From: Candidatus Peribacteraceae bacterium
GTDB taxonomy: Bacteria > Patescibacteriota > Gracilibacteria > Peribacterales > Peribacteraceae
Assembly (NCBI GenBank): GCA_041666245.1
Contig: JBAYHG010000008.1
Location: 16,049 to 80,048 of the forward strand
Reading direction: 5' to 3'
DNA: 64,000 bases
Made by a program: the position numbers and the translations under genes. Below, one piece after another: positions 254 to 61,749 of this stretch (position 1 is its first letter; each line of letters starts with the position of its first letter). The notes below the pieces were generated by a model. It ran no database searches, had not been told where the DNA came from, and was given only the letters and a program-made list of their open reading frames with translations.

Positions 254-1324
254 ATGGAAATCCGCCTCCTCACGACTCCCGGGGAACTGTCGGCCTACGA
301 CCTATGGGTGAAACATCACCCGCAGGGCAGCCTGTGGCAGTCCATTGAATGGAAAGGCTATCAGGAGGCATTCGGGCGGCAAACGCGCGTCTACGGGGCA
401 ATGGAGGGCTCTCAGATCCTCGCAAGCGCCCTGGTGATCATCGACCGGACGGCTGGGGGATTCTGCACGTGGGATATTCCCCGCGGACCCCTCGCCCTTG
501 GAATGGAAAATGAGAAATGGAAAATGGGAAATGAATGGAAACCATTCTTGGACCGCATCATCTTGAGTGCTCAAAGAGAAAAATGTCTCAGTCTGTTCCT
601 GTCTCCCCCTGCTCCATTTTCAATTTTCAATTTTCAATTTTCCATTCGCCCCTCAGGGCGCCACGAACAACCCGAAGCCACACGGATCTTGGATCTGACA
701 CAACCGGAAGAAGCCCTCCTGGCACAGATGCACCAGAAAGGCCGCTACAACATCAAAGTGGCTGAAAAACACGGCGTGCGCGTGGAGGAGTCCAAAGACA
801 TCGATGCCTTCTACGCGCTCCTGAAGGAGACCGGCGGTCGAGACGCTTTCGGCATCAAGCCGAAGACTCACTACGAGGCCTTCTTGAAGGAACTGCCGGG
901 GAGCTTTCTCCTGCTGGCGTACGCAGCGCAGAACGACAGCGTGCGCCCTTCTCCCGGAACGGGGGTGGGGATGGGGGCGAACAGCCCAGGCTACAAGGAA
1001 GCCCTCGCCGGCCTTCTCGGAATCATCTGGAATGGAACCGGAGTGTATTACTACGGGGCGAGTTCCTATGCCCACAGAGCCCTCATGGCGCCCTACCTGC
1101 TCCAATGGGAGGCGATGAAGCGCTGCAAGGCCCTCGGATGCGTTTCCTATGATCTCCTGGGCATCTCTCCCCCGGGAGCCCCCCAAAGCCATCCCTGGAC
1201 CGGAGTATCGGCCTTCAAGGAGAAATTCGGCGGGACAGTCGTCACATATCCCCCGGAGCAGCAGATCGTGCTACGGCCCGTATTGAATAGCCTCTTGGGG
1301 CTGAAGCGGAAATTCTTTGGATAA
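254..1324 (+). CDS. FemAB-family peptidoglycan interpeptide-bridge aminoacyltransferase (FemX-like)
   Basis: ORF 188..1324; first ATG at 254 (MEIRLLTTPGEL). Family-typical blocks: HQKGRYNIKVAEKHGV, YYYGASSYAHRALMAPYLLQWEAMKRCKALGCVSYDLLGI, FKEKFGG. A TATACT hexamer at 241-246 lies 7 nt before the ATG. Confidence 0.75.
   Translation: MEIRLLTTPGELSAYDLWVKHHPQGSLWQSIEWKGYQEAFGRQTRVYGAMEGSQILASALVIIDRTAGGFCTWDIPRGPLALGMENEKWKMGNEWKPFLDRIILSAQREKCLSLFLSPPAPFSIFNFQFSIRPSGRHEQPEATRILDLTQPEEALLAQMHQKGRYNIKVAEKHGVRVEESKDIDAFYALLKETGGRDAFGIKPKTHYEAFLKELPGSFLLLAYAAQNDSVRPSPGTGVGMGANSPGYKEALAGLLGIIWNGTGVYYYGASSYAHRALMAPYLLQWEAMKRCKALGCVSYDLLGISPPGAPQSHPWTGVSAFKEKFGGTVVTYPPEQQIVLRPVLNSLLGLKRKFFG
500..647. 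repeat. Tandem-word fold-back repeat inside the femAB reading frame (word GGAAAAT/GAAAATT)
   Basis: Left arm 500-541: ggaatggaaaatgagaaatggaaaatgggaaatgaatggaaa. Right arm 613-647: tccattttcaattttcaattttcaattttccattc, an imperfect reverse complement. The ~70 nt between the arms stays in frame. Confidence 0.6.
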
Positions 1325-1463
1325 TTTGCTTCCCCTTCCCCTCCCCCATGGGGAGGTCGGGTGGGGGATGAGTGCGGCGAAGCGCGGGTCTCGCGGGTTC
1401 CCGCGCTGGAGCCGCACCTTGAAGGAGGGTGTCCATGAGGGAACCTTGGTTCCCTCATGCATC

Positions 1464-1492
1464 AAAAAGAGCCCCCTCACTCTAGAGGGGGC
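1464..1492 (-). terminator. Intrinsic terminator downstream of the SLH-protein gene (hairpin could also act on femAB)
   Basis: Stem gccccctc (1471-1478) / gagggggc (1485-1492), 6-nt loop. The A-run at 1464-1468 gives a T-tract after the stem on the minus strand. Confidence 0.6.
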
Positions 1493-1529
1493 CCTTTCGT
1501 GCCTATTTTGGGCAAAGATCACACGATGA

Positions 1530-4500
1530 TCAGCTCTGGTAGTTCGTGGAGTTGACGGACGTGTCTGAGTACTCGACCCAGTTGAAGTCTTGTGCGACGG
1601 CTGTCTGATCCTCGTAGTCGGACCACTGCATGTGGCTCGTCGTGGAGGAGAACGTCGAGTTCGTGCTGGACGCGAAGTCCTGCAGAGACACAAGAATGTT
1701 CGATGTGTTGGTCGCAACGACATCGGGGTTCGTGACATTCGCCCTCAGGACGAAGGTCTTGTTCGAACCTGGATCGATCTTCGTGTCGACCGTTCCCGTG
1801 CGGATATTGTCGCATTGCACGAGGAATGCGCCGGAGTTCGACATGACGATCGGAGTACCGGCTGTCGTGAACGTGTTACACGCGTGGGTCGCCGATGTGT
1901 TGGCCTTGTTGTAGAAGACCCAAGAAGTGTAATCGATGGCAACGTTCGTGGCGGTGACGTTGAAGATCACGCCGGAGAGCGTGAACTTGTTGAGACCGTT
2001 CTTCGTGTTGTTGTTCGTGAGAGCGGAGAACTTGAAGACACCCAGCTCCTTCACGCCAGACGGCACGTTGGAACCGTTTGCATCCGCGTTCGCGTTCACG
2101 ATGGAATCAAGCTTCGAGAGAACGGTGATGTTCTGTGCTCCGGCAATGTACGTCCCGGACGACGTGACCGTCGATGTACCGATGAAGACTTCGCCATCAT
2201 CGGTCTGATCGTCATCGTTGCCCGCGAGGTTGTTGCTGGAATCCACGCCGCGTGCGCGGACCGCGCCCGTACCCGTGGCGCTGCTGTTTGCAGAGTTCAT
2301 ATCGATCCAGAATGACACACCGGTTCCGGAAGTGGCTCCGGACTCGTCGCCCTTCATGCTGGGCTTCACGAGCACATTGACCTCGTCAGCCTTCGGCACA
2401 ACGAGTTGCTGGCTCTGCATGCTGGCGCAGAAAGTCGTGACTTGCGCTTGAGCAGCACCGTTTACGAGACCGGGGTTGAAACCTGGGACATCATCCGATC
2501 CACAGTTGTTCGTCGTGGCGGAAGCGAAAGGTGTCGTCTGTCCGACCTTATAGAGATCGAGACGGTCGACCGACTTCGCCTTGGAACCGGAGGACGTGAG
2601 CTGGAGGTTCGTGATGTCGATCGGCTCGTTGATCGCGCGGAAGTTCAAGCTGAGGACGGATTCACCCAGCGCACCAGCGAGGAGCTGGCGGCTGCGGATG
2701 GTCTCCTTCTTCGTGACGAAGAGTGTTCCCTGCGAGACCAGGCTGTATGACGGGGAATTGGCTGTCGTGACCGTCACGTCGCATGTGCTTGCGCAGGTAC
2801 CGTTCGTCTTGATGCCGGAGAGGCTCGTGCCGCGATCGACGGTCTCCGCCTCAACGTAGGAGGTGGAACCCGTTGCGAAGCGCAACTGGAGCGTCGTGGC
2901 GGTCGTGAGGGACCCCGCGATGTCCGCGTGGACCTCGAACTTCACCGTCTGCTCTTTGCCGACGACGAAGCCGCCGTTTGTGATGCCGTCGAACGTGATG
3001 GTGTTGGCGGAGGCCGACTTCCCGCTGTCGAGGATCGTATCGACCGTGCCGTCGCCATCCGTGTCAACCCAGAGTCCGTAGTTCACGCCGTTCTGGAGGG
3101 CTGTTGCACCGCCCACCGCCTCGAAGATAGCCTTCGTGAGGAGAACGGACTTGGCCTCACCCGCGCGTGCCTCGAACTGGAGGAGACGGATGTTCTTGGC
3201 GTTCTTCACTGCGGTCTCCGTGCTCGTGAGAGACTTGACGGTGACCGTGAAGGACGCATCGGCGATGCGCTGCGCATTACCGACGATGGTGCCGCGAGGA
3301 CGAACATCCTGGACCTTGTCGCTCGTGGAGAGACCCTCGAGTTCCAGGTTCCAAGTCGTGGTCGTCGCGTTCGCCGTGATGCCGTTGAAACTGCATCCCA
3401 CCGTGTTCGTGGCGTTGCTGATTTGAGTGGGCTCACCGCAGATCAAAGCCCTGAATTGATCACCCTGTGTGGGGGAGACGCCTGTGCCGTTGTCGGTGAA
3501 GTCGACCTTCAACTGCCAGTTCTCCGTGCCATTCACGGTGAAGTCATCGAAGCGGTAGATCTGGAAGGTGGCTGTCGTCGCTCCGGCGTTGGTGCCGAAT
3601 TCCGTGGAACCCGTCAGTTGGACGCCCTCGATGGAGCGGCCCGTCGTGGCGTTGCGCAGAGTGACGCTGCTCATCACTTCACTGATATCGTCGAAACTCG
3701 TGCCATTACCATGGCCAACGGCCAAGGTCGCACCGGTAACGGTGTTGCCCTGAACCGCGATGTACATCTTCTTGACGTTCACTGTCTCACCGCCCGTCGT
3801 GAAGACGACGTTGGCGAGGACCGCATCCGTCTGGTCGCGTGTGAAGGTCTGCTGCGACGGTCCGTTGATGGCGATCGTGAACTGTCCCGCATCGACCGTG
3901 ATGGACGAAACGGTCCCCGTGGGCGTACCCACTGAGGAGCCATAGAGCTGTCCGTTGACGCCGTAGCCGTAGAGGGAACCGACCGCGAAGATGTCCGATG
4001 TTTCGTCGAAGTCGATCTGGACTGTCTTGGCTGCGCCGCCGACGAGATCACCGATCACTTCGAGGGTGATCCTGTCGCCCTCGAGAACGGTGAAGGGCGG
4101 GCTGAATGTGAGCGCTGCGAACTTGCTCCTGAATTGATCAACCGAGTTGGTGATGACGGTCTTGTCCGTGCGGCGGATGCGGATGTTCGTGACATCGCCG
4201 TCGGAAACCGTGCCCGCCTGATGGAGGGTCATGGCGTAGAGCGTCTGATCCTCGATGGAGTTCGTGGAAACCTCGAACTTACCGAGAACGACGTCCTTGT
4301 CGCCGACTTCCAAAGCGGAAGGCGTGACGGTGCGGTACGCCACAGAGAGCGTGCCGCTCGTGATTGCTCCCACGCGGAAGCTGTTACCCCGGAGGGGGAA
4401 GTTGCCCGAGAGCGACTTCGCGTTCGTCACGAGATCGGAAGCGAGCTCCACTGCGAAGTTGTGCTCCGCGGAAGCTGTAGCCGAAGTCGCGATGTCCGCA

Positions 4501-5768
4501 ACGACATCGACCGTGACGGTCTTGCAGGCCGGCACGACGAGGGGGGACACGAAGCGAACCTCAGCTGTCTGGTCCTTGGAATCGATGGTGCGCTCGCGGG
4601 AAACGCGACCGCCGTCGATCGTTGCGTACACGGCGTCGATATCTCCTTTGTCACCGAAGCCCTCATGGAGGACGGTGAGTGTCTCGACTGTCACGCTGTC
4701 ATCGCAGGAAGCCGTGAGGTCGAGGGAGAGCATCGGAACGGTGTGGGCACCCTTGGGTACCGTGTCACCGATCGGGTTGCTGGAGGAAACGGTCACTTCG
4801 AGGGTGCCGTTGCCCTGCGGGAGGGCGCTGTATCCCATGAAGGTGGCCGTGTCCGAGAAGGTGTCGCCATCGGCGGTCTTCATGTTGGAGACCGTGAGGG
4901 CGTACTCCTTATTGGCCGTCATCGCGGAGGAGAAGACGAGTTCGACGGTCTTCTCGCTCGTGAGCGTGGCGGACGTGATGGTCAGAGCCGGAGAGACGGC
5001 GTAGTTGGCAATCGTCTCGGCGGCGGTCTTGTCGACAGCGACGTTGAAGTCAACCAGCACTTTCACGGTGGAAGCCGCGGAAGCATTGGAAACTGCCGGT
5101 GCAGCGGTCTGTCCGCCACCGCAGTCAGTGCCGTAGGCGAGGCCCTGATCAACGCGGTTGAGCATGACGACCATTTCTGCGCGGTTCATATTGTCCGTCG
5201 GGCGGACGCGGCCTGTGGCCCCGTCACCCTGGAGGACGCAGTGGTCCGCAGCGATCTGGATCGCGTCGGTGTACCACTGACCGGATGGGTTGTCGACGAA
5301 CGTCGGAGCGTCAGACGTCGACTCGAGCCCGAAGGCGCGAACGATGAGTGCTGCCGCCTCGGCGCGCGAGACGTTGGAGGTGGGCCGGGCGTAGCACGGG
5401 TGGCTGCCGTAGCAGTTACCGTCGCCCTTGACCCAGCCTTCCTTGCCGGCCTCCTCCATGTACCCGTAGAACCAAGCTGACGCCTTGACGTCGTCGAAGC
5501 TCGGAACTGCCGGAGCAGTGGAGAGGATTCCGCCGTTCAGCTCCACGACGAGTTTCGTGAACTCAGCGCGGTTGGCCGTATCGGTGGCCCGGAAATTTGG
5601 CTGTGAGGCATCGAGGTAGCCGGCGTCCGTAAAGGACTTCACGGCCTCCTCATACCACACGCCTGCGGGAACGTCCGCGTAGGCGGCGATTGCTGTCGAC
5701 ACAGTCGAGAGCATCATCGCTACGGCGGAGAACCCTGCGAGGACTTTCTTCAAACGAGAAATGTCCAT
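1530..5768 (-). CDS. S-layer-type surface protein: signal peptide, three SLH domains, long beta-rich repeat region, conserved C-terminal domain (1412 aa)
   Basis: ORF 1530..6092, with start placed at ATG 5768 (MDISRLKKVLAGFSAVAMMLSTVSTAIAAYA, a signal peptide). SLH-like segments: DVPAGVWYEEAVKSFTDAGY, FDDVKASAWFYGYMEEAGKEGW, FVDNPSGQWYTDAIQIAADHCV. The upstream 108 codons of the ORF are Arg/Pro-rich and look like junk. Confidence 0.85.
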   Translation of the reverse strand: MDISRLKKVLAGFSAVAMMLSTVSTAIAAYADVPAGVWYEEAVKSFTDAGYLDASQPNFRATDTANRAEFTKLVVELNGGILSTAPAVPSFDDVKASAWFYGYMEEAGKEGWVKGDGNCYGSHPCYARPTSNVSRAEAAALIVRAFGLESTSDAPTFVDNPSGQWYTDAIQIAADHCVLQGDGATGRVRPTDNMNRAEMVVMLNRVDQGLAYGTDCGGGQTAAPAVSNASAASTVKVLVDFNVAVDKTAAETIANYAVSPALTITSATLTSEKTVELVFSSAMTANKEYALTVSNMKTADGDTFSDTATFMGYSALPQGNGTLEVTVSSSNPIGDTVPKGAHTVPMLSLDLTASCDDSVTVETLTVLHEGFGDKGDIDAVYATIDGGRVSRERTIDSKDQTAEVRFVSPLVVPACKTVTVDVVADIATSATASAEHNFAVELASDLVTNAKSLSGNFPLRGNSFRVGAITSGTLSVAYRTVTPSALEVGDKDVVLGKFEVSTNSIEDQTLYAMTLHQAGTVSDGDVTNIRIRRTDKTVITNSVDQFRSKFAALTFSPPFTVLEGDRITLEVIGDLVGGAAKTVQIDFDETSDIFAVGSLYGYGVNGQLYGSSVGTPTGTVSSITVDAGQFTIAINGPSQQTFTRDQTDAVLANVVFTTGGETVNVKKMYIAVQGNTVTGATLAVGHGNGTSFDDISEVMSSVTLRNATTGRSIEGVQLTGSTEFGTNAGATTATFQIYRFDDFTVNGTENWQLKVDFTDNGTGVSPTQGDQFRALICGEPTQISNATNTVGCSFNGITANATTTTWNLELEGLSTSDKVQDVRPRGTIVGNAQRIADASFTVTVKSLTSTETAVKNAKNIRLLQFEARAGEAKSVLLTKAIFEAVGGATALQNGVNYGLWVDTDGDGTVDTILDSGKSASANTITFDGITNGGFVVGKEQTVKFEVHADIAGSLTTATTLQLRFATGSTSYVEAETVDRGTSLSGIKTNGTCASTCDVTVTTANSPSYSLVSQGTLFVTKKETIRSRQLLAGALGESVLSLNFRAINEPIDITNLQLTSSGSKAKSVDRLDLYKVGQTTPFASATTNNCGSDDVPGFNPGLVNGAAQAQVTTFCASMQSQQLVVPKADEVNVLVKPSMKGDESGATSGTGVSFWIDMNSANSSATGTGAVRARGVDSSNNLAGNDDDQTDDGEVFIGTSTVTSSGTYIAGAQNITVLSKLDSIVNANADANGSNVPSGVKELGVFKFSALTNNNTKNGLNKFTLSGVIFNVTATNVAIDYTSWVFYNKANTSATHACNTFTTAGTPIVMSNSGAFLVQCDNIRTGTVDTKIDPGSNKTFVLRANVTNPDVVATNTSNILVSLQDFASSTNSTFSSTTSHMQWSDYEDQTAVAQDFNWVEYSDTSVNSTNYQS

Positions 5769-5949
5769 AAGGTAGGGAAGAAAAAGGAAATAAAAACGAA
5801 GGGAGATGAAGATGGGTATTCGTGAGGAAGGGGAGTGCGACTCCCTGGCGTCTTTCGCCTCGTGTCGTGAGATGAGCGCCCGCCGCCGGAAATGTCCGGG
5901 GAATAGGGGCACTCTTCTCCTTAAATATAAAGAGCACACACCAAGTGAA

Positions 5950-5966
5950 GACACCTTATATATAGG
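5950..5966 (-). promoter_or_regulatory. 17-nt motif CCTATATATAAGGTGTC (minus strand), ~180 nt upstream of the SLH-protein start; candidate promoter or operator
   Basis: Exact 17-mer gacaccttatatatagg on the plus strand, repeated at 6575-6591. It has a near-palindromic TATA-like core. A second TATTTAAGG box lies ~30 nt downstream on the minus strand. Confidence 0.35.
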
Positions 5967-6346
5967 GAATCGTAATCGTCCCCTGAGAAGAGGACAGATC
6001 AGCACTCTGGATACGAGACACGACCCTGCCCGTCTCGCAGCACAAAGGAAGCGAACGGGAGGATGTGATTCTTGTCCTGTTGGACAGGGCAAGCTGCCGA
6101 ATTGTCAAGGAACACGTACGTATGATCCTGCCCACCTTCTGCTGAGCAGATCAGCGGGATACTAGCGAAACGGCTCCATTTGAAGCAAGCCTCGCAGTCT
6201 CAAAGGTGGCAGGACAGAGAACGCAATGGATCCATGTGCGTTACGCACGCTCAGGAGCCATGTGGGGCTTTAAATCAATAATTTTTGCAGCAAATGCGAT
6301 TTTCTCCGATGATTTCACACGCGAAATGGCTGCTCTCCTCGAAATT

Positions 6347-6654: not shown

Positions 6655-6700
6655 AGTTGGAGGATTCCGAAGAGTCCGATGAAGCCGAAGAATCCGAGGG
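6655..6700. repeat. Solo arm of the GAATCCGAG word repeat
   Basis: Sequence: gaggattccgaagagtccgatgaagccgaagaatccgagggat. It shares the 15-mer ccgaagaatccgagg with the reverse complement of the right arm at 21031-21074. No complementary arm is nearby. Confidence 0.4.
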
Positions 6701-6763
6701 ATACAACAAACAGAGAACAGTACATGGCGAGGCTCCGCGCGCCACCCTTCGACTCGCTTCGCT

Positions 6764-6801
6764 CGCTCAGGGCAGGCGGATCGCGCGGCTTGCCCTGAGC
6801 G
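6764..6801. repeat. GC-rich palindromic (REP-like) hairpin
   Basis: Perfect 11-bp stem cgctcagggca (6764-6774) / tgccctgagcg (6791-6801). The gccctgagc/cgaaggg vocabulary recurs at 44997-45036 and 63190-63262. Confidence 0.5.
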
Positions 6802-6850
6802 GCTCCCCTAGAATGCGAGAGGGAGGAGACGAAGTGGAGAGTTTTCATTG

Positions 6851-8494: not shown

Positions 8495-8848
8495 CTAATT
8501 GAGGGCGACGACTTTGGCTCCTTGTGTTGGCCACAGAGGGACATCTCTGGGAGCCAGCACCTCAACATGAGCCGTACGGTCCTCGATCCAGGTCAGCTTC
8601 ACCGTGATGAAGCCCGCAATGATCACCGTTTGATCAAGCTTGCGAGTGAAGACCAATGGACCCTTGCGACAGTTCTTCCCTGCGGCGGGAACTTCCCCCC
8701 GGCAAACGGGGAGATAGGGAGCACGGATCAACACTTTGATCCTCGTCGCTCCGACTGAAGCAACAGTCACTCTGGACTTTCGACCGATCCGGATTTCGGA
8801 GCCCGCAGGACATGTGAATGTGCTGGGCAAGAAATCAGATGTGACCAT
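8495..8848 (-). CDS. Two-domain (fused tandem) CsrA-like protein, 117 aa
   Basis: ORF 8495..8908. Start placed at ATG 8848, which is preceded by GGAGG (8858-8862) in a string paralogous to the csrA leader. Half 1 (SEIRIGRKSRVTVASVGATRIKVLIRAPYLPVCRGEV) and half 2 (PLVFTRKLDQTVIIAGFITVKLTWIEDRTAHVEVLAPRDVPLW) both align to the neighbouring CsrA. Confidence 0.55.
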   Translation of the reverse strand: MVTSDFLPSTFTCPAGSEIRIGRKSRVTVASVGATRIKVLIRAPYLPVCRGEVPAAGKNCRKGPLVFTRKLDQTVIIAGFITVKLTWIEDRTAHVEVLAPRDVPLWPTQGAKVVALN

Positions 8849-11718: not shown

Positions 11719-13017
11719 TCAAACCCTCAGGTGTTCTCGGTTCACATACCACTGCTGCCCGATGCCGAAGAGCGTGGAAACGCCCCAGTAGAGCGAGACG
11801 GCGGCGGGGAACTTGATGGCAAAGAAACCGATCATGAGCGGCATCATGTAGAGCATCACCTTCTGTTGCGTCTGCATGGCGGAAGCGGGCGCAGGCGGCT
11901 TGCCACTCGCAGCAGCCTTCTTCGCCTGCTTCTTGTCCGAGATGGAGAAGGCCATCTTCATCTGGAGGAACTGCAGAATGACGAGCGTGACGGGGAAGAT
12001 GATGACTTCCGGCTGCAGGAGATTGAGACCGAAGAAATTGGTGCCGAAACGCCACGGCAGATCCTGGTACATCGGATAAATGAGGTGTCGTGAGAGTTCC
12101 AGCACCGACCCGTCGCGGATGACGTAGAAGAGACCGATGAGGATCGGCAGCTGCACGAGCGTCGGCAGGCAGGTCTGGAACGGATTGATCTTGTGCTCCT
12201 TCCAGAGCTTCATCGTCTCCTCCTGCTGGCGCTTGGCATCATTCGGAAATTGCTTCTTCAGCTCGTCGAGCTTCGGCTGCAGCATCTGCATCTTCCGCTG
12301 TCCCTCCAACGCGTGCTGCGTGGGGAAGAAGAGGAGAAACTTCACGAAGAGCGTGAGGATGACGATGGCGACGGCAAGGTTGTGATTGGGAACGATGGAC
12401 GCGATGAAGATGAGAAGATTCAGGAACGGCTTCGTGACGAACGTGCGGAAGAGCTTCGTCATGGCTCCCGGCTCACTCAGCGTGAACCGCGCTGAGAGCG
12501 TCTGTTGAGGTTGGATCTTTTCTCCTGTGGGTGACACGAGTGTCCGATCCAGCCCCACACCGGCGAGAGCCCCTGTCTGGCCGTAGACCGGCAGGCGAAC
12601 CTCATAGATGCCCGTTCGCGAGAAAACGGAGAACTGCCACGGTGAGAGGGGAAGCTGTGCCTGCTTATGGGCCGCGACACTTGCAGCGGGAGGAACGCAG
12701 GGGACGGCATTCTGCGACGACGTGATGGAGGAGAGCTTCTCTCCGCTGCCGGACCCCTCCACGAAGAAGATATCAGCGGGCGGGTTAGGACAGCGGTCTA
12801 TCAAGAACACCCCTGTCTGGGTACCGTTCTTAAGGGTGAGAATGGGATGATGACCCACAGTAATGCCTGGCACCGTGAGCGTGAGCGATCCGGGACCTTG
12901 CTGCTGCGTCTGCGGAAAGAAGGTGCGCAGGATGAGCTGGCTCCCCAGGTACACGATGGCGAAAATCAGCGCGAACTGGAAGAGCGAGGACGATCGTTTG
13001 GGGGCAGGGGCGGCCAT
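11719..13017 (-). CDS. yidC: YidC/Oxa1-family membrane protein insertase
   Basis: Conserved core: LAVAIVILTLFVKFLLFFPTQHALEGQRKMQMLQPKLDELKKQF, KEHKINPFQTCLPTLVQLPILIGLFYVI, YMMPLMIGFFAIKFPAAVSLYWGVSTLFGIGQQ. Confidence 0.9.
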   Translation of the reverse strand: MAAPAPKRSSSLFQFALIFAIVYLGSQLILRTFFPQTQQQGPGSLTLTVPGITVGHHPILTLKNGTQTGVFLIDRCPNPPADIFFVEGSGSGEKLSSITSSQNAVPCVPPAASVAAHKQAQLPLSPWQFSVFSRTGIYEVRLPVYGQTGALAGVGLDRTLVSPTGEKIQPQQTLSARFTLSEPGAMTKLFRTFVTKPFLNLLIFIASIVPNHNLAVAIVILTLFVKFLLFFPTQHALEGQRKMQMLQPKLDELKKQFPNDAKRQQEETMKLWKEHKINPFQTCLPTLVQLPILIGLFYVIRDGSVLELSRHLIYPMYQDLPWRFGTNFFGLNLLQPEVIIFPVTLVILQFLQMKMAFSISDKKQAKKAAASGKPPAPASAMQTQQKVMLYMMPLMIGFFAIKFPAAVSLYWGVSTLFGIGQQWYVNREHLRV

Positions 13018-13379: not shown

Positions 13380-13389
13380 AGAGGATAGT

Positions 13390-13490
13390 ATGGAGTACGT
13401 AGTACAAAGTACAAAGTTCGCAGTATGATATATATATAACTCTGGGCTACATACTGCGTACTACGTACTATATACTTCGCTCCGCTCCAT
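13390..13490. repeat. Tandem-word fold-back repeat (7-nt words AGTACNN) in the divergent rnpA/gatC gap
   Basis: Left arm: atggag tacgt agtacaa agtacaa agttcgc agtatg. Right arm: catactg cgtacta cgtacta tatactt cgctccgctccat. Outer 6 bp and inner 8 bp are perfectly complementary; the loop contains atatatatataac. Confidence 0.55.
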
Positions 13491-20944: not shown

Positions 20945-20975
20945 CTCCCAAATCGGCCCCTGGATTCACCACGGG

Positions 20976-52700: not shown

Positions 52701-55700
52701 AGCAGACCGTCGCCGCAGGAATCAACGAGCGTGAATCCGTTGTCGCTCACGTCGAGGTTGCAGTCATCCTCTTGGGAATCAATGCATACAACCCCTGCTG
52801 CATTCCTCGAGACGACAATGACACGATATGGACCGGGGGAAAGCTCCTTCACTTTCCAGCAGGTTTTCATATCCGCTGCACATACCTCCTCTCCTCCCCA
52901 CGTAATGGAATCATCGGGAGAACTCTCGCGTGTAATCCATCCGAGGATCATGTTCCTGTCCGTGTCGAATTGGTGGTCTACGAGCCCGATCATCACCCAA
53001 CCGCTTCCGCCGGACCACCGGATGGTATTGGGCTGACCCAGCTTGAAACTCTCGCCGCCATTGGGCTCGAGCACTGTGACCGCGACCATGGGAGCGATGG
53101 AGGAGGAGGCTTCGGAAGAAGAACTTTCCTCAGAAGACGAGGATCCGGAACTGACGGAGGATGAGCTCTCCTCAGACGATGAAGAGGAACTGGAGGAGGA
53201 TATGTGGCAATCCTGCGGGCAATTGCAGAATCCTTCACCGAGATCGTCGTCACACACGCCATTGCCGCAGGGGAGACAGAGAGCGCCACTGGCGAGCGGG
53301 AGGCACACCCCATTGTCATCGGGTGTCTTGAAAGTTGTCGTTCCCGTGAGTCCATCACAACAGGTATGACCGAGAGCAACGGGCATGATGACCCCAGTGG
53401 AAGTGCAAGGAATGGAGGAGCTGGAAGAGGAAGCCGGATTCGGGCTGCAGATCGAAAGGCTTCCTGACTGCGTGCAGGTGAAACCTGTCTCGAACGTGCA
53501 CGTCGCGGAGCAGCCGTCTTCGTCCGCTGTATTGTGATCGTCACACTCTTCTGCTCCGGTCTTGATACCGTCTCCACAAATCGTGGCACAGACGGAGGGC
53601 GATCCGTCGCACACCCAACCAGTCTCGACAGTGCAGATCGCGGAGCAGCCGTCGCCGGCCTCCGTGCTGTCATCGTCGCATCCCTCGTCACCCGTGATCA
53701 CACCATCTCCGCACTCGGAGGCGGAACTGGAGGCGGAGCTGGAGGAAGGTGCATGCAGACAGGCCCCGCTGTCGCACCCGAATCCACAGGGGACAACCGT
53801 GCTATGCAACCTCCGTGTTCCTTCGGTGCAGACATACTCGGCAACAGCGCACCCTGTGCCGCTGCACTGGGAGACACTGTAGTAGAGCGTGCCTCCGGTG
53901 GAAGACTGGACCTGGAGGCAGGTATCCACGGTGTCTTCGCCATCGGCGGTCACCGTGCCGACTGTGAAGGAATCTTCGCCGTCGGAATCATGACAGGTGT
54001 GCGGCTGACAAAGTGAATTGCACGTACTGTCTTCCGTGCCGTTGCTCGTTCCTTCGTCGCACTCCTCGCCGGTCTCAAGCGTACCGTTACCGCATACGGG
54101 GGCTGCGGAACTGGAAGAAGAAGCTGGATTCGGGCTGCAGATCGAGAGGCTTCCGGACTGCGTGCAGGTGAAACCTGTCTCGACCGTGCAGGTCGCGGAG
54201 CAGCCGTCGCCGGAGTCCGTGTCATCGTCATCACAATCCTCCCCGATGAGCGACTCCGTGCTCTGCGGGTCGAAAAGGAAACGCATGATGATATGACCGT
54301 CGCGTTCGACGACGAGGAGATTGTCTCCATCGATATCATAGGTGCGTCCCTGATTCTGTCCGTAGATGAACGCCGCGACTTGCGCACCGGTCGTCCGGGT
54401 TGCACCGGATCCCGTGGCACCATTGACGAGCGTTGCACCCGTTTGGCCCAACATGTAGCGCTGGAAGAGGATGCCATCGGAGAGGGCGTCCTCTGTGCCG
54501 TTGCCATCGGCGTCCAGATCGATCGTGCCCAGGTACTGCCGGATGACCGCGTTCGTCGTGCGCATCGCGCTCGTTCCGACTGTCGTTTCCAGGAAACCAT
54601 TGCCACATTCCTCTTCAGCACACCGTTCCGAGCAGCCGTCACCGGAGATGATGTTGCCGTCATCGCACTCTTCGACCCCCTTCACCATTGAATCTCCACA
54701 GACCGCGGCACATTGACTGTGACAGTCCGTCGGGGGACCTGTCTGTGCGATCGGCCCCAGGACATCCCCGAGGAGCGAAGCGACGACGTTGCGGAAGAAG
54801 CCCCAGAACCCGCTCACCTGCGGATTGGGACAGATGGTGTTACAGACCCAGCCGGTCTCGACCGTGCAGGTACCGGAGCAGCCGTCGTTGGCAATCGTGT
54901 TTCCATCGTCGCAGAGTTCATCCGCCTGGATAGTGCCATCGCCACACTCGACGGCGATGGAGCTGGAGGAAGAAGAAGTCGGATTCGGGCTGCAGATCGA
55001 GAGGCTTCCGGACTGCGTGCAGGTGAAACCTGTCTCGACCGTGCATGCAGCGGAACAGCCGTCGCCCGGGGTCGTGTTGTGGTCGTCACACTGCTCGGTG
55101 CCTGTCGTGAAGACGGCGCCGTGGTTGGTCCCGTTGTTGCCATAGCCGCTGGCATCGTCGGCATTGCCGTCGAAAGCGTAGGAAGCGACGAGCTGGCTTC
55201 CAGCCGCGTCGGCAAAGATCTTCAGATCCTCGATCTCGCCGTTAAAGTTCTCATTGTACGGATCTCGCCACTTGCCGATGAGGAGACGCTCGTTGTTGGT
55301 CCGGATCCCGACGGTGGTGGCATTGGCGGTCGCGACGATGGCGCCGTCGATGAGGAGCTTCATATTCGGCGCAGGCGCCGTTTTCCCGTACGTGCCGACG
55401 ATGTGGTACCAGCGATTGGTCTGAATGACGCTGCTCCAGATGCCGTTGTCCGCTCCGTTCGCGTCGAAGAAACCGAAAGCCAGCCTGTTGCCTTCGGGGA
55501 ACTTGTGGCCAAGGATGCCGTACGCTCTGCTGGCATCGGCGGTGTCACTGCCCTTCAGGACGACGTAGGTCCAATCCTCACTGAAGTCGCCGTTGAGCTT
55601 GAGCCAGAGGTCAATGGTCATGCCTGAACTGAGGTCAAGACTGGCGCTGTCGGGAGCGTCGATGTAACTGGTGGAACCATTGAAACCGGCGTCTTGGCCA

Positions 55701-58700
55701 ATCCTAATGCCGTCACCACAGAGCGAGCCACAGACGGAGGGGGTGCCGTTACACACCCATCCGGTCTCGACCGTGCAGGTGGTTGAACAACCATCGCTCG
55801 CAGCGATATTGCCGTCGTCACACTGTTCATTCCCCTGGATAATGCCATTACCACATATGGGGGCTATGGAACTGGAGGAAGAACTGGAAGAGGAGGCTGG
55901 AAGAGAGGAGGAGCTGAGAGAGCTGGAGGAGGCTGGAAGAGAGGAGGAGCTGGAACAGGCGGCTGCGGCCATCTTGATATCACCGACGTTTACCTGCGCC
56001 GATCCCTTGGGGAAGCTTATGCCGTAGCGATCCTGCGCCGCCTGCGCGATATCCACGTACACCTCCGAACGTCCCGGGCCCGCATACACCCCGATATACA
56101 CCGCCCGGTGACAATCCTTGTTGAGGTACGCGAACACTTGCTGCGCCGTCGTGACAGAGGGATCAACGGTGAACTGAAATTTCCCGTCGTTATCCGTCTT
56201 CGCATCCGCCGGCATGAACGGCAAAGGACTCGTGACGAAGGCATTCACAATAGGAGCATTCGACACTGCATCCAGGAGCCGTCCCATCACCGTCACGGGG
56301 GGATTTTGAACGGAGGACGATGAGGAAGAAGCGGAACGGACACAAACGCTCGGCACTCCGCTGCAAACCCAGCCGCTCTCGATCACGCATGCGACGGAAC
56401 AACCGTCACCGGCTTTCATGTTCCCGTCGTCGCACTGCTCTGTTCCCTCCTTCTGGCTGTCGCCGCAGAGGATAGACTCACTCACGTCGAGCGGGGAGAC
56501 GCACTCAGGATCGGGAGTGGTTCTCACCCACGTTCCGGAGAGAGGCTGGAACGATCTGCCTGGGGATCCGAAGCCGAACGCGTAGTCCGCGTATCCCATC
56601 TTGTTGGTGTTTTCCAGATAGAAGACCGATGTCTTCGAGTCGTAGAGACCGACCGTATCCGTTCCGTCACTGTCCCAATCGCCCGCCGTCGGAGTCCATC
56701 CTGCTCCCGGATCACCGTAGCCGAACATGATGTCTGCATATCCGGTGGTGTTGGAGTTGCGCAGGTGGAACCAGGATGTGACGGGGTCGTAGACACCGAT
56801 CGTGTCCTTTCCGTCCTTGTCCCAATCACCCGCGATGGCGATGGCCCCGGGGAAACTGTACGGGAACTGGAGGTCCGCATTGCCGGACGAGTTGGTATTG
56901 CGCAGATAGAAGGTGAGAGCCTTCGGATCGAAGAGACCGATGGAATCCTTCCCGTCTCCGTCCCAGTCTCCCGCAAGGGGAGTCAGCCCCGTATTCGGAG
57001 TCCCGAACCCAAACGTCATGTTTGGATTTCCTCCTGCGAGGGAATCCCACAACGAGAAGGTGGATGTCGCAGGATCGTAGAGTCCCGGCGTTTCGAGTCC
57101 GTCGCCGTTCCAGTCACCCGCAATGGATCGCTGCCCGGTCCTCCCTAGGGGGAGCGTGACCGCACCCATTCCCCTGCTATACCCAAGGTAGAACACGCCC
57201 GCAGGATCGTAGACGCCGATCTTCCCCGCCCAGGCGTTCGCAGCGTCGATCTTGCCGTCACCATCGTTGTCGACGCCATCGGTGCACTGCATGAACGGTT
57301 TGCAGGAAGTCGCTGTGCTGCTGCTCTCGGTACAGAGCCAACCCCCCTCCACCACGCAGGTGGAGGAACAGCCGTCGCCGGAAGCGGTATTTTTGTCATC
57401 ACAGGACTCGTCGCCCATTCGAATGCCGTCACCGCATGTGGTTGTACATGCAGACGAGCAACCGTCATTTTCAACTGCATTCTTGTCATCACACTGCTCC
57501 GCCCCGACGACGATGCCGTCGCCGCAGGACGGCACACAGGTACTCGGTACTCCGGAACATGCCCAACCGGCTTCCGGCGCGCAGGCGGCGGAACAACCGT
57601 CACCGGAGATGATATTTCTGTCGTCGCACAACTCATTGGAATCGGGGACTCCATTGCCGCAGAGCTTCTGACAAACGCTCGGTGAGCCGCCGCATGTCCA
57701 GCCACTCTCCAGCGTGCACGTCGAGGAGCAACCGTCGCCGGAAATCACGTTCTTGTCATCACACTGCTCCGCCCCGACGACGATGCCGTCGCTGCAGGAC
57801 GACACACAGGTACTCGGTGCTCCGGGACATGCCCAACCGGCTTCCAGCACGCAAGTGGCGGAGCAACCATCATTGCCATTCTGGTTGCCATCGTCACACG
57901 CTTCCGGCGCTTCGATAACGCTGTCACCGCAGAACGGCGACTCACTCGTGTCCATCGCGGAGAGACACTGCGGATCTCTGTCCATGGTCCGCCACTTCCC
58001 CGACACAGGCAGCCAATTCGGGGCTCCGTATCCGAAGCTGATATCCGCGGTGCCGGACGTGTTGGAATTGCGCAGGTGGAACCAGGATGTGGCGGGGTCG
58101 TAGACACCGATCGTCGTTGTCCTGTTTCCATCCCAGTCACCCACGACCGGCAGCCAGCCGCTGTTTGCCGCACCGAAGGCGACCGTGAGATCCGCCTCTC
58201 CCGACGTGTTGGAATTGCGGAGGTAGAAGGTTGATTTCTTCGCGTTGTAGAGACCGATTGTTTCCGTGCCGTTACCATCCCAATCCCCGGCCACCGGAAG
58301 CCATCCCGCAAGAGGAGTGCCGAATCCGATTTCCAGATCCGCCGTTCCCGTCGTGTTGCTGTTCCTCAGGAAGAACTTGGAAGTTCTCGGGTTGTAGAGA
58401 CCGATTGTTTCCGTGCCGTTGCCATCCCAATCCCCGGCCACCGGAAGCCATCCCGCATTCGGTGTTCCGAAGGAAACCTCCTGATCCGCCACCCCTGTCG
58501 TGTTGGAATTGCGGAGATAGAATTTCGCCTCCGCCTGATTGTAGAGACCGATCGTCACCGCACCATCGCCGTCCCAGTCTCCGATAACGGGCTTCGCGCC
58601 GGCCATCCCGAACGACGCCATGCTGTTTGCCACGCCTGTCGACAGACTGTTGCGAAGGTAGAAGGTCATCGATGTCGGGTCGAGAAGACCGATGCCATCC

Positions 58701-58885
58701 GTACGCAAGACCGTTCCACGAACATCCGCAGTCTGGTCGCCGTCATTGTCGATGCCGTCATTGCACTGTGGTGCCGACGTCTGCGCCAGGAAGGACCGTG
58801 AGAGGGTTGCCGTGGCTCCGGTGAGAGCGACGACCGCAAGGGCGAGGAAGACTTTCCTCGACCAACCGAGAAGGGCGGTTTCCAT
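49754..58885 (-). CDS. Giant secreted multidomain surface protein (3043 aa): FG-GAP/VCBS-like repeats, ~19 Cys-rich CxxDDxNxxxGDGCSxxC repeats, LamG-like domain, dockerin-like EF-hand pairs, Ser-rich linkers, conserved C-terminal domain
   Basis: Uninterrupted 9.1-kb ORF with a signal peptide (KVFLALAVVALTGATA). Repeats: GDWDG(D/N)GxxTIGLY...FYLRNSNTxGxAD, EQCDDGNxxxGDGCSxTCxVExGWxC, a LamG-like block (FNGSTSYIDAPDSASLDL ... FNGEIEDLKIF) and dockerin-like DLDADGNGTEDALSDGILFQRYMLG. Confidence 0.9.
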   Translation of the reverse strand: METALLGWSRKVFLALAVVALTGATATLSRSFLAQTSAPQCNDGIDNDGDQTADVRGTVLRTDGIGLLDPTSMTFYLRNSLSTGVANSMASFGMAGAKPVIGDWDGDGAVTIGLYNQAEAKFYLRNSNTTGVADQEVSFGTPNAGWLPVAGDWDGNGTETIGLYNPRTSKFFLRNSNTTGTADLEIGFGTPLAGWLPVAGDWDGNGTETIGLYNAKKSTFYLRNSNTSGEADLTVAFGAANSGWLPVVGDWDGNRTTTIGVYDPATSWFHLRNSNTSGTADISFGYGAPNWLPVSGKWRTMDRDPQCLSAMDTSESPFCGDSVIEAPEACDDGNQNGNDGCSATCVLEAGWACPGAPSTCVSSCSDGIVVGAEQCDDKNVISGDGCSSTCTLESGWTCGGSPSVCQKLCGNGVPDSNELCDDRNIISGDGCSAACAPEAGWACSGVPSTCVPSCGDGIVVGAEQCDDKNAVENDGCSSACTTTCGDGIRMGDESCDDKNTASGDGCSSTCVVEGGWLCTESSSTATSCKPFMQCTDGVDNDGDGKIDAANAWAGKIGVYDPAGVFYLGYSRGMGAVTLPLGRTGQRSIAGDWNGDGLETPGLYDPATSTFSLWDSLAGGNPNMTFGFGTPNTGLTPLAGDWDGDGKDSIGLFDPKALTFYLRNTNSSGNADLQFPYSFPGAIAIAGDWDKDGKDTIGVYDPVTSWFHLRNSNTTGYADIMFGYGDPGAGWTPTAGDWDSDGTDTVGLYDSKTSVFYLENTNKMGYADYAFGFGSPGRSFQPLSGTWVRTTPDPECVSPLDVSESILCGDSQKEGTEQCDDGNMKAGDGCSVACVIESGWVCSGVPSVCVRSASSSSSSVQNPPVTVMGRLLDAVSNAPIVNAFVTSPLPFMPADAKTDNDGKFQFTVDPSVTTAQQVFAYLNKDCHRAVYIGVYAGPGRSEVYVDIAQAAQDRYGISFPKGSAQVNVGDIKMAAAACSSSSSLPASSSSLSSSSLPASSSSSSSSSIAPICGNGIIQGNEQCDDGNIAASDGCSTTCTVETGWVCNGTPSVCGSLCGDGIRIGQDAGFNGSTSYIDAPDSASLDLSSGMTIDLWLKLNGDFSEDWTYVVLKGSDTADASRAYGILGHKFPEGNRLAFGFFDANGADNGIWSSVIQTNRWYHIVGTYGKTAPAPNMKLLIDGAIVATANATTVGIRTNNERLLIGKWRDPYNENFNGEIEDLKIFADAAGSQLVASYAFDGNADDASGYGNNGTNHGAVFTTGTEQCDDHNTTPGDGCSAACTVETGFTCTQSGSLSICSPNPTSSSSSSIAVECGDGTIQADELCDDGNTIANDGCSGTCTVETGWVCNTICPNPQVSGFWGFFRNVVASLLGDVLGPIAQTGPPTDCHSQCAAVCGDSMVKGVEECDDGNIISGDGCSERCAEEECGNGFLETTVGTSAMRTTNAVIRQYLGTIDLDADGNGTEDALSDGILFQRYMLGQTGATLVNGATGSGATRTTGAQVAAFIYGQNQGRTYDIDGDNLLVVERDGHIIMRFLFDPQSTESLIGEDCDDDDTDSGDGCSATCTVETGFTCTQSGSLSICSPNPASSSSSAAPVCGNGTLETGEECDEGTSNGTEDSTCNSLCQPHTCHDSDGEDSFTVGTVTADGEDTVDTCLQVQSSTGGTLYYSVSQCSGTGCAVAEYVCTEGTRRLHSTVVPCGFGCDSGACLHAPSSSSASSSASECGDGVITGDEGCDDDSTEAGDGCSAICTVETGWVCDGSPSVCATICGDGIKTGAEECDDHNTADEDGCSATCTFETGFTCTQSGSLSICSPNPASSSSSSIPCTSTGVIMPVALGHTCCDGLTGTTTFKTPDDNGVCLPLASGALCLPCGNGVCDDDLGEGFCNCPQDCHISSSSSSSSSEESSSSVSSGSSSSEESSSSEASSSIAPMVAVTVLEPNGGESFKLGQPNTIRWSGGSGWVMIGLVDHQFDTDRNMILGWITRESSPDDSITWGGEEVCAADMKTCWKVKELSPGPYRVIVVSRNAAGVVCIDSQEDDCNLDVSDNGFTLVDSCGDGLLATSVGPSATRVKASEVRQYLGMIDLDLDGNGTQEALSDGLLLNRYMSGMTGATLVNGVIGSGATRTTPGEILAFIGSHLEDYYDIDGNGSLEADYDGEIALRYLFDPQVPTLIGEECDDSNVIDGDGCSATCTVETGWMCYVECGTTGTSSEGPLASLRSFFASLFSFVRAQLTGSGSTTEPEQCRSVCAPFCGDGLCMTVEDTSCTRCDGTNDSCDESCYACPEDCGIPSACIEEGKEGSGLTNDACCEDLISVSNAQRDSEGDCAVNEDGSFLCTLCGDGVCGLGENACNCPHDCLNLPIAPCGDGWVDTEVSEECDDGNDGNGDGCSVYCMIENGWECNPDEAGQSECASIFGDGLITGTEECDDANTTDGDGCTLGMIDDGWECAGEPSECTEIPQVAECGNSVVEEGEECDDGNDTENDGCNSCSQEHGWVCSESGSLSICATECGDGKKAGEEQCDDSNSVNGDGCSSSCAREVGFECAPDVEPSLCTSTCGDGIKVGTEECDDDNNDDGDGCNSACRSETCTDSDSGKVLSVKGTTVTGPNGSGSFVTQVDYCGEDGMIGEYSCSGSTIVLEEQSCPTESVCGDGACIPPPEATLTITAVTSTQTQLLGGTLGKAALQLKLKAGNLGDSGNTVRIDTIGFNVITNDGRPHPSVAEAQIFRKGGTEPIAHATAAACGSGSNFMLCADLSQTGLSLTETAGDILSVRVLANSDEQTSSHQVFQLGLPPDGIEASEVRAGNSVPLSINDGNGAAAGEILVFPSDRLVNPATKNKTVYGTIQYPVYAKVLSITDANEDADNTALSAGAKDVAAFTFSAAANVNTKDGLNVIALSGAYFNVVTANVTVNADSLQFYNSAAPDVVRSCRAYSKTGTQLTGEISGSFLAYCNLRDGVLDTQIEQGTSSTFKLRVTILNPKVDDAKSSQLIVSLRQFNKPGLSFGTTGSHLLWEDADQGSATSFRWAEDSLGYVESTRYFFN

Positions 58886-60900: not shown

Positions 60901-60916
60901 CCTCCTGAGGAGGTGA

Positions 60917-61594
60917 ATGTCACTTTCTCCGAAGCGTGCTACTCTACCCTCTAAGATGGTCCGTCTCCCCGCCTCACTGGAACGAAAGCTCGCGGAGCTC
61001 TTCCCGCACATTCACGAACGCGAGCAGTGGGTGGCGGATACGCTGGAGGATGCCATGGAGAATGCGGAGCCGGCGGTACACGAGAAACTTCCGGAGCATG
61101 TGGGCGGGACGCTCCATCTCTTTTCCGACGGCGGATCGCGGGGCAACCCCGGTCAGGCCGCCATCGCGTGGATCATCGAGGATCCGGCACGCGGCGTGAT
61201 TCTCAAGCAGCATGCGGAATGCATCGGCGTCGAGACGAACAACATCGCGGAGTACCGAGCGCTCCTGGAAGGACTCAAGGTCGCCCAGCGCTACCGCCCC
61301 AATCGCCTCATCTGCCACCTCGATTCCGAGCTCGTCGTGCGGCAGCTTTCCGGAGAGTACCAGGTGAAGATGCAGACGCTGCAACCCTACGTGGAGGAAA
61401 TCCGCGCCATCACGATGGAACTCCCGGACGTCGTCTTCAAGCACATCCCGCGGAGCGACAACTACCGCGCGGACGCGCTGGTGAACAAAGTCCTGAACGA
61501 GCAGGAGAGAGGATCCAGACGGGCGATCCCGAACTCGCAGAAGCCGCCGCCTTACAGACCGCCGCAGCAGTTTTTCGGGAGGGGAGAATATTAG
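60917..61594 (+). CDS. rnhA: RNase H type 1 (RNase HI family) with ~60-aa N-terminal extension
   Basis: LHLFSDGGSRGNPGQAAIAW ... TNNIAEYRALLEGL ... DSELVVRQL ... NYRADALVN (DEDD catalytic pattern). ATG 60917 is preceded by GAGGAGGT at a 3-nt spacing. Confidence 0.8.
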   Translation: MSLSPKRATLPSKMVRLPASLERKLAELFPHIHEREQWVADTLEDAMENAEPAVHEKLPEHVGGTLHLFSDGGSRGNPGQAAIAWIIEDPARGVILKQHAECIGVETNNIAEYRALLEGLKVAQRYRPNRLICHLDSELVVRQLSGEYQVKMQTLQPYVEEIRAITMELPDVVFKHIPRSDNYRADALVNKVLNEQERGSRRAIPNSQKPPPYRPPQQFFGRGEY

Positions 61595-61692
61595 AGTATT
61601 AGAGTATTAGAGTATTAGAGTATTAGAGTATTAGAGTATTAGAGTATTAGAGTATTAGAGTACTAGAGTATTAGAGTAACAGAGTAACAGGA
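61589..61692. repeat. 8-bp microsatellite-like tandem array: 13 units, 10 of them exact TATTAGAG
   Basis: Nine consecutive perfect TATTAGAG units (61589-61660), then TACTAGAG, TATTAGAG, TAACAGAG, TAACAGGA. The array begins within the rnhA stop codon. Confidence 0.95.
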
Positions 61693-61749
61693 CGACCCCC
61701 ATCATTCTTTTTCCTGTTATTCTGTTCCTCTCATCCCTGTTATTCTGCG
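61677..61749. repeat. Fold-back part of the same element (TAACAGAG words versus CCTGTTATTCTG words)
   Basis: taacagagtaacagga (61677-61692) is complementary to tcctgttattctgtt and ccctgttattctg (61712-61747), immediately upstream of the vanW-family start. Confidence 0.55.

Follow-up and report, generated by a model that had tools for sequence, protein, structure and literature searches.

Intervening sequences (IVSs) of 23S rRNA are the closest described counterparts of the elements treated here. In Coxiella burnetii, the 23S rRNA IVS holds an S23p open reading frame (ORF) within a 28-bp stem of terminal inverted repeats, together with tandem heptamers (GACAGAT) that differ in number from strain to strain, the first of them being the site of RNase III cleavage. 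RNase III cleavage has been shown experimentally for rRNA IVSs, and there has long been a suspicion that IVSs are selfish or mobile. Genes of the 23S_rRNA_IVP family (PF05635) are also known between unrelated genes, for example inside cas operons, and rRNA insertions of the Candidate Phyla Radiation (CPR) likewise carry 23S_rRNA_IVP ORFs. Here we examine a stretch of 64,000 nucleotides from a Candidatus Peribacteraceae bacterium (contig JBAYHG010000008.1 of assembly GCA_041666245.1, positions 16,049 to 80,048; hereafter the window) that contains fold-back repeats whose arms are built from tandem short words. These loci probably belong to a single class of fold-back elements that are small, selfish and apparently mobile, namely gene-less derivatives, resembling miniature inverted-repeat transposable elements (MITEs), of an IVS-type cassette; their RNA would form stems cleavable by RNase III.

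Tandem heptamers are also known outside rRNA. In the 5′ untranslated region of hmw1A in Haemophilus influenzae, a long RNA hairpin processed by RNase III has one arm of (ATCTTTC)n heptamers, and the number of repeats changes by slippage. The heptamer repeats of cyanobacteria, Beggiatoaceae and Bacteroidetes (short tandemly repeated repetitive sequences, STRR; TAACTGA) are intergenic, and their patchy occurrence across phyla suggests horizontal spread, for which there is no known mechanism; STRR are also reported within the gene for RNase P RNA.

PF05635 cassettes and their gene-less counterparts

The window contains one complete cassette (43572-44049, plus strand). Its 5′ arm (43572-43601) consists of the 8-nt words CGTTAGCT GGTTAGCA TGTTAGCT CGTT and holds the TAG stop codon of recJ (43585-43587), and its 3′ arm (43994-44049, AACCAGCTAACGAGCTAACTCGTCAACGAGCTAAC) is the reverse complement of the 5′ words and directly adjoins the convergent HTH gene at its stop codon. 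The preliminary description of this DNA had treated the wide 'GCTAACGA' pair (43574-43601 with 43994-44049) as a mere fold-back; the inverted words are indeed present, but they bracket a gene, and the parent cassette had thus gone unrecognised. The 130-aa product of this gene (43602-43994), which occupies the 'loop' of the fold-back, is a four-helix-bundle protein that matches Pfam PF05635 (23S_rRNA_IVP) at 2.5e-24 over profile positions 1-105 of 106 and TIGR02436 at 7e-25, above the family cut-off. A profile match to PDB entry 2GSC (4.2e-18) was also obtained. The solved relatives, 2GSC and 2RLD, have five chains per entry, and XCC0516 has been described as a homopentameric toroid.

This layout around PF05635 genes recurs in many bacterial phyla. 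A metagenome scan with the family profile gave 80 diverse loci, 69 of them with both flanks, which were compared with 228 control segments. Periodic arrays were present in at least one flank of 60 of the 69 loci (87%) against 10 controls (4%), and in both flanks of 30 loci against none of the controls; a flank-to-flank inverted-repeat score of at least 14 was reached by 46 loci and by three controls. The dominant array periods at PF05635 loci were 7 nt (65 arrays), 8 nt (24) and 9 nt (7). Typical words are GGTTCAN on the upstream side and NTGAACC on the downstream side; the core of the words is conserved, whereas their last positions vary. The inverted-array layout also occurs in cultured bacteria, namely on a plasmid of Nostoc sp. 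ATCC 53789 (GGGAAAA) and in Riemerella anatipestifer (GGTTCAA/GGTTTAA). Similarity between cassette proteins correlates with the similarity of their arms measured as 6-mers (Spearman 0.28, a value reached in 0 of 2000 permutations), and therefore the ORF and its arms descend together. The PF05635 profile detected no relatives among viral contigs.

In the literature, no paper was found that presents inverted word arrays around PF05635 genes as a general rule, and as such a rule the architecture appears to be undescribed. Nevertheless, the earlier statement that no described repeat class has this organisation does not hold, since both the flanks of PF05635 genes and the Coxiella 23S rRNA IVS match it. 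Some cassettes from other phyla are more elaborate: a complete hairpin of words flanks the ORF both upstream and downstream, or an arm holds up to about 13 words (L095, 2330-2480 and 2900-3060; L102, 150-310 and 690-800); in cassettes of this type the four arms could pair in alternative ways.

Arms of the same kind are common to gene-less and ORF-bearing forms. Cassettes with a layout like that of the window and with other words were found in three related genomes, at L082 (GAGTATTA), L170 (GTTGCTG/GTTTCTC) and L181 (AAGCACC). The arms of the gene-less window element at 38210-38327 match those of the ORF-bearing L082 cassette at 28 of 31 and 19 of 19 nt, in a genome whose orthologous proteins are only ~52% identical to those of the window. 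At L142, gene-less hairpins have a 33-nt arm identical to the arm of the adjacent cassette, and in other genomes gene-less word hairpins near cassettes reach 5.6 per 64 kb versus 0.85. Within the window itself, the solo arrays at 29627 and 47554 are built from words of the cassette's 3′ arm. Judged by these sequence matches, the gene-less copies derive from ORF-bearing cassettes or have common descent with them.

Comparison of orthologous gaps, which had been proposed as a check, revealed presence and absence. The gap between the HU and KhpB genes is empty in L180, where the terminator is followed directly by TTTCCTCCGCC; exactly at this junction, L179 and L181 have different word hairpins inserted, and in the window and L176 the gap is filled by yet other hairpins. 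A canonical HU terminator lies upstream of the hairpin site in the window, and each of the four relatives compared also has one. The element that L179 carries here is near-identical to the window element at a different locus, 20974-21074. The gap between RecJ and HTH genes holds a PF05635 cassette both in the window and in L181, with proteins that have no BLASTP similarity to each other in the presence of RecJ and HTH proteins that are 52% and 81% identical; in L179 it holds a gene-less hairpin of ACGTAAT words. In L081, a relative with ~90% nucleotide identity, the element at 30745 is missing, and other sequence is found there together with other C-termini for both flanking genes. The strains L084 and L086 were compared over 21,059 nt, and the sole difference is a single 7-nt word within a (GGGGGTA)n arm. 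The FtsQ/glycosyltransferase gap (24229-24327 in the window) has hairpins with other words in L082 and L084, and the KhpB/DnaJ site of L179 has GAGAAAT-type words related to those of 38926-38996. The words of 31910-32001 form a hairpin in L082 at 17917-18036. The elements come and go at orthologous sites with clean junctions, and their arrays change by whole words. Empty and filled sites, non-orthologous copies and unrelated cassettes at one site thus bear out the proposal of the preliminary description that copying between loci, rather than independent terminators, explains the family.

The elements of the window

The window is a gene-dense segment of a bacterial chromosome with ~59% GC. Among its housekeeping genes are cysS, yidC, rnpA, topA, dnaJ, recJ, ftsQ and rpmH as well as those of 6S RNA and two tRNAs, and its proteins are nearest to those of Candidatus Peribacteraceae/Peregrinibacteria of the CPR. 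In a scan of genome contigs with the fumarase-like protein, the matches listed included no close relative and were proteins of other phyla with ~50% identity; the VanW ORF had no exact match, probably owing to the choice of start codon.

In addition to the cassette, there are about 11 gene-less fold-backs and four solo arrays. Inspection, repeat tools and a periodicity scan found the structure at every locus that had been listed before. The words have periods of 7, 8 and 9 nt, so that tandem words are confirmed and the limit of 7-8 nt is not. Arms are 21-49 nt long and 71-95% complementary, and spacers measure 2-81 nt in the 11 fold-backs other than 43572-44049. With 23-55% GC against ~59% for the window, the elements are AT-rich islands as claimed. 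They occupy 13 of the 38 intergenic gaps of at least 40 nt (4 of 11 convergent, 7 of 15 tandem and 2 of 12 divergent), which is far from filling most gaps as had been stated. The reported sharing of strings between pairs of loci holds, with exact strings of 12-17 nt and ~41 nt with three mismatches between 30745 and 41724. At least eight different words occur within 64 kb, and there is no arm consensus common to all.

The periodicity scan, set to periods of 6-10 nt and to reverse-complement partners no more than 160 nt away, detected 26 periodic segments in the window, 14 of them partnered, compared with 0-2 and 0, respectively, in 20 block-wise dinucleotide shuffles; the arms therefore exceed shuffled controls, a comparison that the preliminary description had proposed. 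In 80 unrelated loci there were 0.85 partnered arms per 64 kb. Compared with dinucleotide shuffles, 10 of 12 elements fold with z ≤ −2 on at least one strand, the extreme being −8; the weak folders are 500-647 (z = −1.6/−1.5) and 38926-38996 (z = −1.9/−1.9), and 41724-41806 reaches −0.7 on the plus strand and −2.2 on the minus strand. At gathering score, Rfam recognised only tRNAs and 6S RNA in the window and no family for the hairpins, and it had no match over 18 PF05635 loci. At relaxed thresholds, the sole matches of the hairpins at 15283, 20974, 24229 and 30745 were eukaryotic pre-miRNA families, far below gathering scores; in this respect the hairpins look like generic long imperfect stems cut by enzymes of the RNase III family.

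The divergent gaps are occupied by 13386-13490 (AGTACNN, period 7, z = −3.6/−4.7), between rnpA(−) and an amidase gene (+), and by 24229-24327 (GGAAAGAAA words, period 9), between FtsQ(−) and glycosyltransferase(+). Convergent gaps hold 15283-15376 (AGGAAAGAA words, period 9; amidase/DUF475), 30745-30846 (AAGGCAG(AA), period 9, z = −6.6/−5.5; HD/M23), which provides the stop codons of both neighbouring genes, and 38926-38996 (TGATAAT/GGAAAAT words, period 7; KhpB/DnaJ). The fold-back at 31910-32001 (CAGAGTAA words, period 8, z = −6.3/−8.0) lies in the tandem gap between M23(−) and a PrmA-like gene (−), and 20974-21074 (GGAATCCAA/GAAACCAAA words, period 9) is located 9 nt downstream of the LysM-M23 gene. 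The element at 38210-38327 (words as in L082, period 8) lies in a tandem and not a divergent gap (HU+/KhpB+), where the canonical HU terminator is followed by the element and then by khpB. The weak fold-back at 41724-41806, in the tandem gap upstream of recJ, combines a left arm that is a 38/41 copy of the left arm at 30745 with a short, degenerate right arm.

Solo arrays were found at 6663-6697 (9-nt GAATCCGAA family) in the 805-nt gap between an SLH gene and cysS, where 13 nt are common with 20974-21074; at 29627-29664 (ACGAGCTAAC-type words) between methyltransferase and HD genes; and at 47554-47600 (CAAACCAGCAAACGAGCTAACGAG), directly downstream of rpmH(−), with words that match the 3′ arms of the window and L170 cassettes. 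Between the RNase H-like and VanW genes, an array of 12.8 copies of AGAGTATT (61585-61686) runs into a fold-back of TAACAGAG words (61670-61749, z = −6.7/−4.5), the whole spanning 61580-61749; the stop codon of the RNase H-like gene is inside the array.

The fold-back at 500-647 is located within the coding sequence (CDS) of a FemAB-family protein (188-1324), with a GGAAAAT-type arm at 500-538 and an ATTTTCA-type arm at 612-647 (33 nt, 82% complementary, spacer 81 nt). The arms encode two variable loops of the protein and the spacer encodes a conserved segment; this is not one inserted hairpin. Occurrence in all gap orientations and once in a CDS had been noted before and holds. A FemAB homologue with 51% identity has the similar peptide NFQFSIFNSQF in the matching loop. 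Arms can accordingly bracket host sequence, and the copied unit may be the arm rather than the hairpin. In another homologue, P0246 (alignment A3, columns ~170-195), the repeat-like peptide STKVSKYESGKYESAKV is found in the loop that corresponds to the peptide encoded by the window's left arm, which suggests independent array insertions in one loop.

Several arms provide the stop codon of a neighbouring gene. Read on either strand, the 5′ arm is purine-rich and C-poor in 12 of 12 window elements, and of 72 reading frames entering from outside in each case, 5′ arms close 43 and 3′ arms 13. For insertions at gene ends, such stop-rich arms resemble a survival filter. In-register complementarity is 84% against 70-71% when the arms are slid by one word, a difference biased by the choice of the best register. 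A terminator scan reported no stem of an ORF-less fold-back; the only hits that touched elements were the HU terminator, displaced so as to overlap one end of 38210-38327, and a short stem within the cassette's 3′ arm. The elements do not qualify as classical terminators, since they are long, imperfect and rich in AT, their tails mostly lack T runs (U-tracts), they occur in divergent gaps and a CDS, and one relative is empty.

Other features of the window and its relatives were also noted. A palindrome without a spacer (20536-20593; 29-nt arms, 76% complementary, not tandem words) abuts the 3′ end of a tRNA gene (20595-20668, minus strand). A second, small and GC-rich palindromic motif type is present in the window at 6735-6810 and 34925-34965 and on the reverse strand of L081 at ~560-600 (GCTCAGGGCAGGC, CTCGCTCGGGA, GTCATCCCGAGCGTAGCCGAGGGAC); in L081 it fills the HD/M23 gap, which in the window is occupied by the hairpin of AAGGCAG words. 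The 6S/SsrS RNA gene (28689-28842, minus strand; Rfam 50.1 bits, gathering score 46.4) has Cu-oxidase_4 and methyltransferase genes as neighbours. The usual rpmH-rnpA-yidC cluster is split, rpmH (L34; 47603-47740, minus strand) being ~34 kb away from rnpA-yidC (11719-13379, minus strand), and public gene calls (L173) place a 182-aa ORF over rpmH on the opposite strand. Two giant ORFs are present on the minus strand, one of 3043 aa (49754-58885) with a 147-nt tandem repeat (×2.4, 58173-58522) and one of 1520 aa (1530-6092) with a weak SLH-domain match; the searches made found no other Pfam domains in them.

Origin of the elements and alternative explanations

If the loci are, as we favour, gene-less offshoots of an IVS-type cassette, their spread and maintenance can be pictured as follows. 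Arms transcribed within neighbouring mRNAs would form imperfect double-stranded RNA stems of 25-35 bp. By analogy with rRNA IVSs and hmw1A, RNase III would cut these stems and so process read-through transcripts; through this cleavage, the elements would serve as processing or insulation sites and not as classical terminators. Because a stem made of repeated words still pairs (~70%) when slid by one word, slippage would be tolerated, and stop-rich arms, read from outside, would let insertions survive at gene 3′ ends. A more specific proposal, which we hold to be rather unlikely, is that the PF05635 pentamer recognises the words of its own arms on RNA or single-stranded DNA, each word being bound by about one subunit, and promotes copying or insertion, acting in trans on matching gene-less copies.

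Several points weigh against this picture. On the one hand, the evidence for mobility is incomplete in its usual signs. No target-site duplication is visible between the empty L180 and the filled L179 and L181, the only testable site; none of the window ORFs tested is a transposase, a recombinase or a RAYT (REP-associated tyrosine transposase) gene, Y1/HUH included; and the PF05635 protein has no known enzymatic function and is not a known mobility protein. The copies have no full-length consensus, since arms or words but not spacers are common to loci, and the arms in the FemAB CDS bracket conserved host sequence, which simple hairpin insertion leaves unexplained. Host relatedness may be part of the cause of the correlation between ORF and arms. 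On the other hand, cleavage by RNase III is proposed by analogy alone, stem mismatches on the strand of the PF05635 ORF show no excess of G:U over A:C (99 vs 90) that would indicate selection at the RNA level, and the arm polarity of the L181 cassette is opposite to that of the window elements, contrary to a survival filter. No rnc (RNase III) signature was found in the sequence examined, which is a small part of the genome.

The alternative that survives best, though we regard it as unlikely, is that the host selects RNA hairpins (terminators, 3′-end stabilisers or processing sites) that stay at fixed positions and evolve in place, with words turned over by slippage and compensatory change. 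It would account for stable stems, for the preference for gaps with a gene 3′ end (11 of 26, against 2 of 12 divergent gaps) and for the orthologous gaps (M23/HD, glycosyltransferase/FtsQ, HU/KhpB and KhpB/DnaJ) in which a word hairpin is kept with differing words, including the related GAAAAT-type words at KhpB/DnaJ in the window and L179. In-place evolution does not explain near-identical arms at non-orthologous sites of genomes with ~52% identical orthologues, the L180 empty site, the absence of the 30745 element from L081, or non-homologous PF05635 cassettes at one site. Furthermore, two of the elements are in divergent gaps and another is within a CDS, HU already has a canonical terminator in the window and the four relatives, and U-tracts are mostly missing. 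Among the three roles offered by the preliminary description, the terminator or 3′-end hairpin is weakened by the same two divergent gaps, by the CDS case, by the element behind a canonical terminator and by the empty relative; the MITE-like non-autonomous element fits best.

It is also conceivable, and less likely still, that the arrays are primarily iteron-like protein-binding sites on DNA or RNA, read word by word by the PF05635 pentamer or a host regulator, with the hairpin being secondary. The five chains of 2GSC and 2RLD and the toroid of XCC0516 would suit such a role, as would the conserved core of the words, the ORF/arm correlation and the median of 4-4.5 words per arm, which is compatible with pentamer binding and does not demonstrate it. 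The window has at least eight words and one PF05635 gene, copy number ranges from 2 to 12, and strict inversion together with the 84% in-register complementarity points to pairing.

The third role offered earlier, slippage combined with fold-back repair, stands in one part: slippage does act within arms, as the 7-nt indel in 21 kb between L084 and L086 indicates. As the whole explanation, in which a slippage array followed by intrastrand template switching gives a by-product without function, mobility or a link to PF05635, it is very unlikely. Solo arrays, arms that pair in several registers and the FemAB arms around native coding sequence would be expected from it, but it leaves unexplained why arrays accompany 87% of PF05635 genes in many phyla and 4% of controls, why arm similarity tracks ORF similarity and why identical arms of 19-33 nt recur at unrelated loci and genomes.

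An assembly or chimera artefact of low-complexity reads, for which one could cite the many short PF05635 contigs and the L081 contig that ends in an array, has practically no probability, because in three other samples or runs (ENA ERZ27249449, Logan SRR6484324 and JGI 3300037810) four contigs are 100% identical to the window over 1.6-20.5 kb, nine elements included, and because cultured bacteria have the layout in complete genomes and plasmids. The short contigs in public assemblies and the L081 contig end indicate that the arrays break assemblies. At that contig end (L081 1125-1161), which corresponds to about position 30218 in the HD gene of the window, lies an array of CGCTTAC/CGCTTAT 7-mers; the window HD gene is continuous there, so that the array lies inside or splits the HD gene at the point where the contig breaks.

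A mobile IVS-type cassette with gene-less offshoots would have consequences beyond the window. PF05635/TIGR02436 proteins are very common and structurally solved and have no known function, and 30 years of calling rRNA IVSs 'selfish' have brought no mechanism. The cassette architecture ties together these proteins, rRNA IVSs and the tandem heptamer repeats of cyanobacteria, Beggiatoa and Bacteroidetes: the cassette would behave as mobile DNA that spawns gene-less hairpins in about one third of the intergenic gaps of a streamlined CPR genome. This gives a concrete model, testable in cultivable hosts (Riemerella, Nostoc), for protein and repeats, and it gives annotators a rule for recognising elements that interrupt assemblies and give rise to spurious ORF extensions and stop codons. 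Should the pentamer indeed read the words, the cassettes would constitute an unrecognised class of transposase-less mobile elements across bacterial phyla and the source both of rRNA IVSs and of the cyanobacterial and Bacteroidetes heptamer repeats, and the recruitment of this protein fold (Avd) by diversity-generating retroelements would be explained.

Relation to known systems

Four familiar classes do not apply. Integron attC sites are rejected because the words lack RYYYAAC/GTTRRRY cores, CRISPR because there are no spacers, and invertons because there is no invertase and no inverted variant among the four identical contigs. A CsrA sponge RNA is rejected because GGA occurs in some words only and these words are paired. 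A CsrA-like ORF is present in the window (8495-8740, minus strand; PF02599, 2.1e-10), and GGA appears in several word families, in words that are paired in stems.

Intrinsic terminators share with the elements a stem-loop after a gene; the window stems differ in being 25-35 bp long, AT-rich and imperfect, usually without a U-tract, and in occurring also in divergent gaps and a CDS. The hmw1A hairpin is a single phase-variation locus whose other arm is G-rich and not an inverse array, with neither a dispersed family nor an ORF. The heptamer repeats of cyanobacteria and other phyla are, like the arms, tandem intergenic 7-nt words, and the PF05635 gene on the Nostoc plasmid is bracketed by inverted GGGAAAA arrays; they are nevertheless described as direct repeats, with one inverted set among 170 in a Beggiatoa genome, and the heptamer-repeat study cited reports no link to PF05635 or hairpins.

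Rickettsia palindromic elements are palindromic repeats whose arms are not tandem words; in-frame insertion into protein genes is known for them too. Drosophila Foldback elements have long inverted termini of short tandem repeats and are eukaryotic and kilobases long. Neither has a sequence or taxonomic relationship to the window elements.

Closer are MITEs and REPINs, the doublets of repetitive extragenic palindromic (REP) sequences. As in these, small gene-less hairpins occur in multiple intergenic copies with presence/absence polymorphism and are kin to a larger ORF-bearing element with matching ends; short transposase-less elements with terminal inverted repeats, multiple copies and insertion polymorphism are what defines the likeness to MITEs. 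The differences from MITEs are that no target-site duplication is visible at the one site compared and that the partner with matching arms (L082, L142) encodes PF05635 and not a transposase. REPINs and IS200/IS605-type elements insert without target duplication, and REP doublets are mobilised by RAYT transposases; the elements differ from these in having subfamily-specific 7-9-nt tandem words in place of a REP consensus, and the window has no RAYT (IS200/IS605-like TnpA).

The 23S rRNA IVSs of Coxiella burnetii, Leptospira and Salmonella remain the nearest relatives. In both systems terminal inverted repeats form a long stem, and some IVSs have an S23p/PF05635 ORF in the loop, as 43572-44049 alone does in the window. 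The window elements lie between or within protein-coding genes and not in rRNA helices (Rfam finds no rRNA in the window), most of them have no ORF, and both of their arms consist wholly of tandem words. IVSs are excised by RNase III, and cleavage of the window elements is predicted. The finding is thus best described as a gene-less, MITE-like offshoot of the IVS-type cassette, one that is precedented and whose general architecture appears to be undescribed.

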